From a bacterium (GTDB taxonomy: Bacteria > Hydrothermota > 32-111): a stretch of 15,960 nt of DNA. The notes under the pieces are model-generated. The model saw only the letters and a list, made by a program, of their open reading frames with translations, was not told where the DNA came from and searched no databases. Positions 8,859 to 15,372 of the stretch are shown piece after piece (within the stretch, counting starts at the first letter, position 1; every line of letters begins with the position of its first letter). The translations under genes were made by a program, and so were the position numbers. The stretch lies in contig JBFXGO010000048.1 in NCBI GenBank assembly GCA_050239825.1, positions 1-15,960 of the forward strand. Direction: 5' to 3'.

Positions 8859-9783
8859 ACAGCATCTTCCCCTTTTTAAGAATTGCCTCTTCGGTGAGAT
8901 TATATTTTTCAAAGAGACTCTCGGGAGTTCCCGATTCGCCGAAGGTGTCTTCAATTCCGACAAACTCCATTAGAACTGGTCTGTTGAGAGCGGCAAACTC
9001 GGCTACTGCGGATGAGAGTCCTCCGATTACAGAATGCTCCTCAGCAACAAGAATCGCTTTTGATGTATTCAAAGCATCCAGCAAGGCTTGTTTATCCAGA
9101 GGTTTTATGGAGTACATATCCAAAAGCCCCGCATCTATGCCCATTGACTGAAAACGAAGGAGAGTGTTTTTTGCAATCGACACCATGGCTCCGCATGCGA
9201 TTATTGTTATGTCCGCCCCCTTTTTTATTGTTGCGGATTTTCCTATATCGAAAGAATCATTCTCTTTGTATAAAATCTCAAGCTCGTTTCTTGGAAGCCG
9301 CATGTAAGCATAAGATTGATAATCATACAGTTTTTTAGTGAGATCCGCTGTCATGTAGGCATCGGAAGGGCACAGAATGGCCATTCCCGGAACAGCCCTC
9401 ATCAATGCCAAGTCCTCAATGCACTGATGACTTGCACCGTCCTCTCCCACAGAGATTCCGGCATGTGTTGAAACTAATTTTACATTCCAGTGAGGATATG
9501 CTATTGAATTTCTTATCTGGTCAAAAACTCTTCCGGTTAAAAACATTGCGAATGAAGAGCAGAACGGCTTGAATCCTGCGGATGCGAATCCGGTGGCAGT
9601 TCCTATCATATCAGCTTCGGATATTCCCATATCAAAAAAGCGGGAAGGAAATTCTTTTTTGAAAAGTTCTGTCTTTGTTGATTTTGCAAGGTCTGCATCA
9701 AGCACTACAATGTCATCATGGATTCTGCCGAGCTCTACAAGAGTCTTTCCGTATGAATCCCTGAGAGATTTTTTTTCACCCAT
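8845..9783 (-). CDS. tkt: Transketolase, C-terminal subunit (pyrimidine-binding + C-terminal domains)
   Basis: VVLDADLAKST, DMGISEADM, GEDGASHQ, IKPLD, EEHSVIGGL, DTFGESG. Confidence 0.93.
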   Translation of the reverse strand: MGEKKSLRDSYGKTLVELGRIHDDIVVLDADLAKSTKTELFKKEFPSRFFDMGISEADMIGTATGFASAGFKPFCSSFAMFLTGRVFDQIRNSIAYPHWNVKLVSTHAGISVGEDGASHQCIEDLALMRAVPGMAILCPSDAYMTADLTKKLYDYQSYAYMRLPRNELEILYKENDSFDIGKSATIKKGADITIIACGAMVSIAKNTLLRFQSMGIDAGLLDMYSIKPLDKQALLDALNTSKAILVAEEHSVIGGLSSAVAEFAALNRPVLMEFVGIEDTFGESGTPESLFEKYNLTEEAILKKGKMLYDKF

Positions 9784-10591
9784 TCAAAAGCTCCTTCATG
9801 GCTTTTTCATATTCGTTTTTCTTGGGAGGGGAGCCGTGGAAGTTGACATTGTTCTCCATGAAAGATACGCCTTTGCCTTTTATCGTGTGCGCAATTATGA
9901 AGACCGGTTTTCCCATCACTTTGTCTGCTTCATTGAATGCTCTGTCGATTGCTTCAAAGTCATGCCCGTTTATTTCAATAACATGAAAACCGAATGATTC
10001 AAATCTCTCTCTTGAGGGAGATGGATTTTTTATCTCTTCGATGTATCCATCTATCTGAAGATGGTTGTAATCAAGGATGACGCGGAGATTATCAAGAGAG
10101 TATCTCGATGAAGTCATGCACGCTTCCCAGAACTGACCCTCGTTTATCTCTCCGTCTCCGACCATGCAGTAAACTTTTGCATTGATGCCCTTCATCTTAA
10201 GAGCGATTGCGCATCCGTTTGAAAACGACAATCCCTGTCCGAGAGAACCTGTGGATGTTTCTACTCCCGGAGTGGTCTTCCTTGAAGGATGCCCCTGAAG
10301 CATTGAATTTATTTTTCTGAAATGCGATAACTCTTCAATGGGAAAAATATTTTTATAAGCAAGACAAGAATATAAAGCGGCCGAAGCATGTCCTTTAGAG
10401 AGCACAAATCTGTCCCTTTCATTGTTTGCGTAGTTCTCTTTTGAAAAATTCATTTTGTGAAAGTAAAGATAAACCATTATGTCAATCGCTGAAAATGATC
10501 CGCCTATGTGTCCTGAAGAGGCATTGAAGACCATCTTGAGAATCTCCACTCTGCATTCGTTTGCTCTTTTGATTAAAAAATTCTTTTCCAT
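9776..10591 (-). CDS. tkt: Transketolase, N-terminal (ThDP-binding) subunit
   Basis: SGHIGGS, RDRFVLSKGH, LQGHP, TGSLGQG, GDGE-x-x-EG...N ThDP motif, TIKGKG...FHG. Confidence 0.94.
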   Translation of the reverse strand: MEKNFLIKRANECRVEILKMVFNASSGHIGGSFSAIDIMVYLYFHKMNFSKENYANNERDRFVLSKGHASAALYSCLAYKNIFPIEELSHFRKINSMLQGHPSRKTTPGVETSTGSLGQGLSFSNGCAIALKMKGINAKVYCMVGDGEINEGQFWEACMTSSRYSLDNLRVILDYNHLQIDGYIEEIKNPSPSRERFESFGFHVIEINGHDFEAIDRAFNEADKVMGKPVFIIAHTIKGKGVSFMENNVNFHGSPPKKNEYEKAMKELLNG

Positions 10592-10600
10592 AGAATATGA

Positions 10601-10629
10601 ATATTAAACAAAATCATAATAAATGTCAA
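10601..10629 (-). promoter_or_regulatory. Sigma70-type promoter for tktN-tktC-ftsE-ftsX (near-leaderless)
   Basis: TTGACA (10629-10624), 17 bp, TAATAT (10606-10601), 9 nt, ATG 10591; no SD. Confidence 0.6.
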
Positions 10630-10640
10630 TGATTTATCTT

Positions 10641-10713
10641 AAAAATAAAAATAATAAATAATTAAAAAAATAAAAATAATACTTGATATTTTTTTAATTA
10701 TATGTTATATATT
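10641..10713 (+). promoter_or_regulatory. Probable promoter with A/T-rich UP-like element for the micro-protein gene
   Basis: Pure A/T tract (about 10641-10681), TTGATA (10683-10688), then TG-n-TATATATT (10703-10713); exact -10 register ambiguous. Confidence 0.5.
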
Positions 10714-10745
10714 TATTAGTAAAACTTTTAACCGTAGGAGGGACA

Positions 10746-10823
10746 ATGCCTACAGCAAAAAAAGCTGCGAAGAAACCTGCTAAGAAAACAGCAAAGAAGC
10801 CAGCAAAGAAAGCAAAGAAGTAA
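10746..10823 (+). CDS. 25-aa Lys/Ala/Pro-rich histone H1-like micro-protein, MPTAKKAAKKPAKKTAKKPAKKAKK (not in the ORF track)
   Basis: AGGAGG at 10736-10741, ATG 10746, TAA 10821-10823. xAKK repeats use varied synonymous codons (GCA/GCT/GCG, AAA/AAG, CCT/CCA); a terminator follows. Confidence 0.85.
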   Translation: MPTAKKAAKKPAKKTAKKPAKKAKK

Positions 10824-10842
10824 GAAAGCAGCGAGAAAGAGT

Positions 10843-10874
10843 AAAGCCGGCCGCAATGCCGGCTTTTTTATTTT
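10843..10874 (+). terminator. Intrinsic (Rho-independent) terminator
   Basis: AAAGCCGGC (10843-10851), CGCAAT loop, GCCGGCTTT (10858-10866), then TTTATTTT. Confidence 0.88.
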
Positions 10875-14165: not shown

Positions 14166-14171
14166 GTGTTT

Positions 14172-14684
14172 ATGAAATCTCAGGATATTGTAATTATTAT
14201 GAAAATTATTTCAATGAAACAGCTGGATTGGAGGCTGATTGATATTGCCTATCAGACGCGGATAAGTTTATCGGAGGTCAGTGAAGGTATGAAGCGTCTG
14301 CGGGAATCTTCGCTCCTCTTCGGAGAAAATAAAGTCAATACCGAGAATCTTCGCGAATTTCTCTTCCATGGTTTAAAATACTGCTTTCCGGCAAAGGTCG
14401 AAAGGACATGCAGGGGAATACTGACTGCGCATTCAAGCAGATTCATGAAAAATTTTGTTGAATCAGAGTCCATCTCGGATTATGTCTGGCCATACGAGCA
14501 CGGCGAATCTTACGGCCTAAGCGTCAGACCGTTATACAAGACAGTTCCGGGTTTTGTCGAAAAAGATGACTCCATGTATGAAGCACTCTCTTACATTGAT
14601 GTTCTTCGATTGGGACGCGTCAGGGAAATTGCCCTTGCGAAAGAAAAACTCACCGAAATAATAAAAAAGTACGATGCTGTCTGA
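14172..14684 (+). CDS. N-terminal HTH protein, putative antitoxin/regulator of an AbiE-like (type IV TA) pair
   Basis: HTH-like 'LIDIAYQTRISLSEVSEGMKRL', then EFLFHGLKYCFP, RGILTAHS, VWP, PLYKTVP, IDVLRLGRVRE. Start moved to ATG 14172 on promoter geometry (GTG 14166 abuts the -10 box). Confidence 0.7.
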   Translation: MKSQDIVIIMKIISMKQLDWRLIDIAYQTRISLSEVSEGMKRLRESSLLFGENKVNTENLREFLFHGLKYCFPAKVERTCRGILTAHSSRFMKNFVESESISDYVWPYEHGESYGLSVRPLYKTVPGFVEKDDSMYEALSYIDVLRLGRVREIALAKEKLTEIIKKYDAV

Positions 14685-15372
14685 AAATATTAAAGATGTT
14701 GTTGAAATTGCAGAGGCGTTAAAGGAAACGAAGAGAAAGGTCTGTCTTGTGGGCGGAGCAATATCCTCCTTCTATCTTGAAGATGATGTGAGTTCGAAGA
14801 TTAGACCCACAAAGGATGTTGACTGCGTCATCGAAGTTCTTGATTATTTGTCTTTCATGGATCTCGAGAAAAGTCTGAAGAAACTGGGATTTGTTCACGA
14901 CTTGGATTCGGGAATCATCTGCAGATGGAAATACGGTCAGATAACTGTCGATATAATTCCGTCGGAGTCAAAAAAAATACTCGGTTTTACAAATATATGG
15001 TATAAAGAAGGAATGAAAAATTCTATCTCAAAAGAAATCAGCGGTGTAAAAGTACATTATTTTCCGCTATGTTATTACATAGCATCAAAAATTGAAGCTT
15101 TTAAAAGCAGAGGAAAAAACGATTATTACGACAGTAATGATTTTGAGGACATTGTACTGATTCTCGAAGGCAGACGCAACCTAAATGAGTTCTATGGGTT
15201 TCCGCAGAATGTAATTGCTTACCTAAAACGAGAATTCGGCCTTATGCTTCAGGATACAAGATTTGAATCAGCAGTTTATGGTCATTTAGAGCAGACGCCT
15301 GTGATTCAGAGAAGATTTGAAAGGATAATTGGATTTCTGAAGGAGTTTGTGAAAAAAGAAAGACAGGGATGA
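14674..15372 (+). CDS. Pol-beta superfamily nucleotidyltransferase, AbiEii/AbiGii-like putative toxin
   Basis: LVGGA ... RPTKDVD (GG + DxD), VDIIP, KIEAFKSRG, DFEDI; 11-bp overlap with the upstream HTH gene. Confidence 0.75.
   Translation: MLSENIKDVVEIAEALKETKRKVCLVGGAISSFYLEDDVSSKIRPTKDVDCVIEVLDYLSFMDLEKSLKKLGFVHDLDSGIICRWKYGQITVDIIPSESKKILGFTNIWYKEGMKNSISKEISGVKVHYFPLCYYIASKIEAFKSRGKNDYYDSNDFEDIVLILEGRRNLNEFYGFPQNVIAYLKREFGLMLQDTRFESAVYGHLEQTPVIQRRFERIIGFLKEFVKKERQG

Follow-up and report, generated by a model that had tools for sequence, protein, structure and literature searches.

An xAKK-repeat microprotein of 25 residues in a Hydrothermota genome, a candidate nucleic-acid polycation

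The microgene and its surroundings

The window, i.e. the whole stretch of 15,960 nucleotides analysed here, contains a small ORF between a transketolase gene and a peptidase-C25-like gene (Table 1). The product of this ORF, MPTAKKAAKKPAKKTAKKPAKKAKK, is rich in lysine (12 of its 25 residues), contains no arginine, aspartate, glutamate or aromatic residue, and displays six KK pairs with a tetramer spacing, with a predicted pI of 11.0 and a predicted net charge of about +11.5. Neither a signal peptide nor a hydrophobic face was found in the peptide. The start codon is placed 4 nt 3' of AGGAGG, and both this motif and the 25-residue ORF with 12 lysines, as described in the initial annotation of this DNA, are borne out by the sequence.

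Table 1 Features of the microgene locus, with positions in the window.
Feature	Position	Strand	Basis or remark
Transketolase N-terminal subunit gene, divergent	9776..10591	-	Pfam; neighbour within the genus only
AT-rich A-tract intergenic DNA, common to the divergent transketolase operon	10592..10682	.	89% AT over 10592-10736
Promoter-like motif TTGATA-17-TATATA, extended -10 TG (predicted)	10683..10711	+	Sequence; TTGA..TGnTATA retained in both genera
Shine-Dalgarno AGGAGG	10736..10741	+	Sequence; GGAGG retained at 8/8 orthologous loci
25-aa xAKK-repeat microprotein ORF (Lys/Ala/Pro/Thr)	10746..10823	+	Sequence, relatives, codon changes, shuffles
Purine-rich 3' spacer, stop codon to hairpin	10824..10842	+	Near-identical motif in two genera
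Intrinsic-terminator-like hairpin and U tract	10843..10874	+	Prediction; stem retained in relatives, loops and stem variants differ
Divergent peptidase-C25-like gene, 342 aa	10884..11912	+	Profile; downstream context, outside the microprotein

The A-tract DNA upstream of the microgene is a possible UP element, and a sigma-70 site on the minus strand (10629-10601) is directed at tkt. The AT-rich promoter of the initial annotation finds support in the base composition and in a motif that is retained in relatives, but a strict sigma-70 scan gave no plus-strand promoter at the microgene, because the -10 of the candidate is without its last T. Genome-wide, TTGA..TGnTATA occurs 111 times, compared with 35-57 times in 5 shuffles. 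Given the AT-rich promoter and the consensus RBS, expression of the microgene would be strong. At the other end, the hairpin proper (10843-10866) has a 9-bp stem followed by TTTATTTT, and its GC pairs have a pairing probability of 0.89-1.0 in the predicted microgene transcript, in agreement with the intrinsic terminator annotated initially.

The 342-aa protein encoded downstream has no Pfam match, but scores 36 bits against a profile built from the genome's own C25 domains; the C25 assignment made earlier is thus sound, for a divergent C25-like protein below Pfam detection. This stand-alone gene is conserved across the family f1, with 41-44% identity in three other genera, and canonical C25 domains are found 8 more times in the genome, in proteins of more than 1000 aa. 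Its ATG starts 17 nt 3' of the hairpin. In three other f1 genera, the microgene is absent at the locus (4/4 genomes) and a promoter is found directly 5' of the C25-like gene. The short gap and the direct promoter in genera without the microgene suggest that the microgene unit probably feeds the C25-like gene by read-through. The microgene had been described as its own transcription unit, which agrees with the promoter-like motif and the hairpin but is probably too strict, read-through past the hairpin being the likely supply of the next gene. The same would apply in family f5, where the gene downstream of the microgene is mfd (by Pfam in G021; other f5 loci look alike). The f5 hairpin directly precedes the start of mfd, so that a separate promoter or RBS would hardly fit, and read-through control of mfd is possible. 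Elsewhere in the window (14166-15372), a pair of genes for proteins of 172 and 232 aa, preceded by a canonical promoter motif at ~14137, presumably resembles an HTH and nucleotidyltransferase (AbiE-type) module.

Conservation, selection and other forms in the phylum

A DNA search of 30 relatives covered most of the locus in 7 genomes from two genera. The peptide of the two genomes from the same genus (G001 and G002) is identical to MPTAKKAAKKPAKKTAKKPAKKAKK, and the five genomes of genus g5 carry versions of 21, 21, 21, 22 and 52 aa. All 7 loci have the promoter motif, GGAGG, the hairpin, and the same downstream gene. Loss of the frame, the RBS, and the xAKK pattern in relatives had been named initially as grounds for abandoning the proposal; the 7 relatives retain the ORF, with in-frame changes in repeat number, and GGAGG is present at 8/8 orthologous loci. 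The synteny expected by the initial annotation holds on one side: the C25-like gene follows at 8/8 orthologous loci, but tkt lies upstream in 3 same-genus genomes only. G010 yielded no match to the microgene or to the C25-like gene, so the locus may be unassembled there. Across the phylum, a profile search gave microgene matches in 22 of 251 genomes.

Several observations bear on whether the ORF is a gene. RBS-led ORFs of 15-60 aa that start with ATG and contain at least 3 xAKK/xVKK units number 2 in the genome and 0 in each of 20 block shuffles, and none of 100,000 base shuffles of the ORF reached 5 xAKK units. Among the genome's 409 short RBS-led ORFs, this one ranks as the most basic. The five xAKK units exhibit 15 third-codon-position differences across pairwise comparisons, a count that is partly by construction as the units were picked as AKK; the repeat is nonetheless exact in protein and degenerate in DNA, as noted before. 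Where close relatives encode identical peptides, their DNA differs at 11 sites, every one a synonymous third position (g1, 3; g5, 4; g54, 1; g26, 3), and the ratios of synonymous to non-synonymous codons in more distant ungapped pairs are 11:4 and 12:5. Within the genus, the DNA identity of the ORF is 0.97, compared with 0.68-0.79 far upstream, and the length at the orthologous locus changes by whole codons (21, 22, 25, and 52 aa). As the repeat number changes in frame and the variable sites of close relatives are all synonymous, the ORF is very probably a real, conserved protein-coding gene. Judged from its codons, it is under purifying selection, and the selection on the peptide postulated earlier is substantiated by the synonymous-only sites and in-frame length changes.

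Of the alternatives considered in this work, the least credible is that the ORF arose by chance or that the unit acts as a non-coding RNA. Conservation extends to the 3' spacer and the promoter, which speaks in favour of this alternative, but an Rfam scan gave matches at chance level only (best 19 bits for a threshold of 50), the changes are synonymous with indels in frame, and the RBS and start are retained across wide GC ranges. Stop-codon read-through of the microgene was rejected as well, given that the frames 3' of the stop differ between genera.

The microgene also takes other forms. Family f5, another family of the phylum, provides 15 profile matches, 14 of which are stand-alone ORFs of 21-31 aa with TTGAC, AGGAGG, and a hairpin, the remaining one being the N-terminus of a 423-residue frame; the f5 forms have one cysteine near the start. 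In G233 (C327), two tandem microgene cassettes encode 31 and 25 aa, and a TTGACA motif, an RBS, and a hairpin are present in each. A second mini-gene of the genome studied here (G000:C50:76253-76369) encodes 38 aa, in which AKK/VKK repeats come after a CxCGC N-terminus. This mini-gene has a TTGATT-17-TATAAT motif, a hairpin, and a long leader, and the congeners G001 and G002 carry similar copies; the cysteines might serve in metal binding or dimerisation. At other loci in family f1, two sister genera without the microgene at the locus encode all-repeat Lys/Ala/Val/Thr proteins of 148 aa (G003) and 93 aa (G004), which by composition would tie the microprotein to Hc2-type proteins. As a lead only, PF07382 (HC2) is carried by 17% of the members of a cluster that neighbours the 52-aa form in the Atlas. 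A looser pattern was found in 97 of the 251 phylum genomes, a number that includes chance matches, as a reversed control shows, and that we do not use as a prevalence figure; among 30 of its loci, only G063, G144, and G190 are clear stand-alone mini-ORFs outside f1.

Annotation status and look-alike mini-ORFs

The 25-, 23-, 38-, and 52-aa forms have no match at threshold in Pfam or NCBIfam, and the 148-aa relative scores 10.9 bits against PF07382 (cut-off 40) and 6.5 bits against NF038053 (cut-off 80), in tests that composition-bias filters weaken for such Lys-repeat sequences. In an exact look-up in a collection of 15 billion proteins, 13/13 correctly framed sequences were absent; since forms of 93 to 148 aa should be callable and the 148-aa one is missing nonetheless, absence can also mean that a genome is not included. 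The initial statement that the microprotein is unannotated holds for this collection and for both family databases. The ESM Atlas does contain the 52-aa form, and a protein homology search with this low-complexity orthologue as the query gave 1 unnamed match (E 0.21) among 7613 candidates, a result that says nothing for sequence of such low complexity. In the literature, we found no paper on stand-alone xAKK microproteins, most subscription papers being outside the coverage of the search.

In order to find similar ORFs elsewhere, we scanned GTDB genomes with a pattern composed of GGAG, KKxAKKxAKK, and K-stop, which gave at least 120 matches. Among the matches listed, 102 of 120 are ORFs with an RBS, a length of 14-32 aa, and a lysine content of 40% or more, and 78 of these 102 have an in-frame stop close upstream, making them clear stand-alone mini-ORFs. 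The 78 come from at least 16 named lineages, two of them archaeal, as grouped from record titles (1 unassigned and 25 untitled). Among the matches listed, Acidobacteriota account for 18, Alphaproteobacteria for 7, Planctomycetota for 5, and Nitrospirota, Verrucomicrobiota, and Chloroflexota/Dormibacterota for 4 each, with one each from Leptospira, Myxococcota, Methylomirabilota, Elusimicrobiota, WOR-3, Ignavibacteria, Gemmatimonadota, Bdellovibrionota, Micrarchaeota, and Woesearchaeota. The composition of the 102 listed mini-ORFs (56% K, 30% A, and 0.1% R) is partly set by the pattern, and their loci span ~27-72% GC. As the sample was selected by pattern among the matches listed, no prevalence is derived from it, and homology and convergence are indistinguishable for such low-complexity mini-ORFs. 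With a looser filter, small ORFs were also found in 18 of 46 matches on viral contigs. A tblastn search against phage records, with the low-complexity filter on, gave no match. Judged by these sequences, the microprotein belongs to a very widespread class and is not a one-off.

In the well-studied Leptospira interrogans (L060, 714-788), a 25-aa Lys/Ala mini-ORF is accompanied by GGAGG and a hairpin, and such mini-ORFs are not mentioned in the main text of a Leptospira sORF preprint. A locus of Micrarchaeaceae (L086) contains two such ORFs ~140 nt apart. The neighbour genes of the mini-ORFs differ between lineages. We scanned 68 upstream and 65 downstream frames from 80 titled loci; most are without a Pfam match, in part since GC-rich DNA often has a shadow frame as its longest frame, and 11 of the 24 Pfam-named downstream neighbours (65 loci tested) are convergent.

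Possible function and comparison with known systems

We hypothesize, with somewhat better than even confidence, that the microprotein is a non-specific nucleic-acid polycation that screens and coats DNA like a free tail of H1, HupB, or Hc2. The peptide would be disordered, with a net charge of about +11.5, and its lysine pairs would touch backbone phosphates every 4 residues. It would thereby screen the charge of chromosomal DNA, probably also that of RNA, and help packing, acting by mass in a polyamine-like manner rather than by long-range bridging; for a 25-mer, charge screening at high copy number seems more likely than DNA bridging. Selection retains the composition and the charge spacing, not the length or context, which fits a disordered polycation on a regular polyanion, without sequence specificity; the neighbour genes vary and some genomes have two copies. 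On the other side, presence is patchy (22 of 251 phylum genomes, with absence at the locus in three f1 genera), and no family threshold is reached. The strongest evidence against the DNA-coating reading is the effect of tail length in MDP1: its PAKK tail by itself is reported to bind and compact DNA, but in vitro compaction nearly vanished in mutants whose tails had at most 38 residues, and at least 38 tail residues and the HU domain are required in cells (PMC10810275). A chain of 25 aa alone may therefore compact DNA poorly, and the word 'condensing' used in the initial annotation may be an overstatement.

The main rival, which we consider rather unlikely, is a factor on the RNA side, either a protein loosely associated with ribosomes or a modulator of translation that binds mRNA. 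Tiny ribosomal proteins, i.e. bTHX, bS22, and eL41, match the microprotein in size, and its expression signals look strong and constitutive. A fixed ribosomal pocket is difficult to reconcile, however, with a length variation of 21-52 aa at one locus, paralogues, and patchy presence. The microprotein is without arginine and aromatic residues, whereas R/(K+R) is 0.23-0.59 in the three short ribosomal proteins of the genome used for comparison, which we take to be bL34-, bL36-, and uS14-like. Searches with the peptide and with its profile gave no PDB match, a weak test for a low-complexity sequence as well as for carriers whose ribosomes may be unsolved, and no ribosomal-protein gene was found among the Pfam-named neighbours, which do include three occurrences of an RNA methyltransferase and two of rsfS, the latter next to loci that the strict set does not contain. 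Support for RNA binding comes from PhaF and Hc2: the KPAA region of PhaF alone is described as binding specific transcripts and stimulating translation (PMC12818456), and Hc2 as binding RNA, with an affinity above that of Hc1, and repressing translation (PMC2848022). Given the RNA binding by PhaF repeats and the higher RNA affinity of Hc2 relative to Hc1, DNA is not the sole likely partner.

A different polycationic role (binding to membranes or anionic polymers, an antimicrobial action, or a lysine/nitrogen or pH buffer) is improbable in our judgement; the extreme charge and the mini-ORFs of viral contigs (18/46) would suit it, but not the lack of a signal peptide, a hydrophobic face, and consistent transporter or immunity neighbours. 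It is very improbable that the ORF is a lysine-sensing leader peptide, irrelevant in itself, that governs terminator read-through into the next gene. The arrangement is suggestive, with an ORF and a hairpin between the promoter and a gene that starts 17 nt further on and, in f5, a hairpin abutting the mfd start. The best antiterminator duplex for the 5' arm is nevertheless poor (-8.0 kcal/mol, compared with -14.6 kcal/mol for the hairpin), a -13.5 duplex existing for the 3' arm only; the downstream genes are not lysine-biosynthetic, 11 of the 24 named ones in the scan are convergent, and G233 has two cassettes in tandem. We give slightly less credence still to an organiser of polyphosphate granules, as modelled on the KPAA tail of AlgP, which is reported to localise to such granules and to space them (PMC9239181). 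Neither PPK1 (PF02503) nor PPK2 (PF03976) was matched in the 99%-complete genome, and they were found in only 2 and 1, respectively, of the 28 f1/f5 genomes searched, which are mostly microgene carriers, the control genomes being matched as expected; this absence and rarity make a role with polyphosphate unlikely in this lineage.

A wider proposal can be made tentatively: undescribed 'minimal linker-histone' peptides of 14-35 aa may be encoded in many bacterial phyla, as well as by certain archaea and phages, as abundant chromatin components. These peptides would be ribosomally made polyamine- or protamine-like polycations, with Hc2, BpH1, and the HupB, AlgP, and H1 tails at the long or fused end of a continuum. 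They would have escaped notice because gene callers skip them and because trypsin or LysC leaves pieces of 1-5 residues, as computed for the tryptic digestion of MPTAKKAAKKPAKKTAKKPAKKAKK. The nucleoid proteome of two lineages that contain carriers was obtained by LysC/trypsin digestion, according to its authors (PMC10627809). The significance of the class lies in its breadth and in its being overlooked by standard annotation and by tryptic proteomics: if the peptides are made, they are systematically missed in the current inventories of proteins that bind RNA or belong to the nucleoid. Since look-alikes are found in cultivable lineages (Acidobacteriota, Nitrospira, Planctomycetota, and Alphaproteobacteria), a role for free H1-like tails in prokaryotes is directly testable.

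Compared with known systems, the microprotein shares with bTHX, bS22, and eL41 a size of ~25 aa, a very basic character, and the ease with which gene callers overlook it. Those proteins contain arginine, are non-repetitive, and have a fixed length, whereas the microprotein is Lys-only, repetitive, and variable in length.

The comparison with H1-like tails made at the outset is apt, as the KK pairs are evenly spaced and acidic residues are lacking. Chlamydia Hc2 (HctB, PF07382), Bordetella BpH1, and the Burkholderia Hc2-like proteins (NF038053) are, like the microprotein, stand-alone chains with evenly spaced lysine pairs between A/V/T/P, and their repeat number varies as well; Hc2 is reported to condense DNA (PMC2848022). 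These known proteins, however, have 149-237 aa built from pentamer units, and Hc2 possesses a conserved C-terminal region, whereas the microprotein (25 aa; orthologues 21-52) consists of nothing but the tetramer xAKK repeat, without arginine, and has no match to either profile. The tails of HupB/MDP1 and H1 are similar Lys/Ala/Pro-rich disordered chains with PAKK/AAKK repeats (PMC10810275), but they are ~100 aa long and fused to an HU or a globular H1 domain. The microprotein has no folded domain, its ORF containing neither an HU (PF00216) nor a globular winged-helix domain (no Pfam match); the genome's two HU/IHF-family (PF00216) matches are on other contigs, with domains of ~90 residues, and the one HU-like protein examined has no xAKK tail. 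The KPAA regions of Pseudomonas AlgP and PhaF are also made of Lys/Ala/Pro tetramers and are reported to bind DNA, polyphosphate, and RNA (PMC9239181, PMC12818456), and DNA binding in vitro by KPAA peptides is cited in one of these papers (PMC9239181). AlgP and PhaF differ in having one lysine per unit instead of two, in their length, and in the fusion to targeting domains. By the tests that define the families of Hc2, HupB, and H1, the microprotein therefore falls outside them and, from its sequence, is apparently an undescribed minimal variant of H1-like Lys/Ala repeat proteins.
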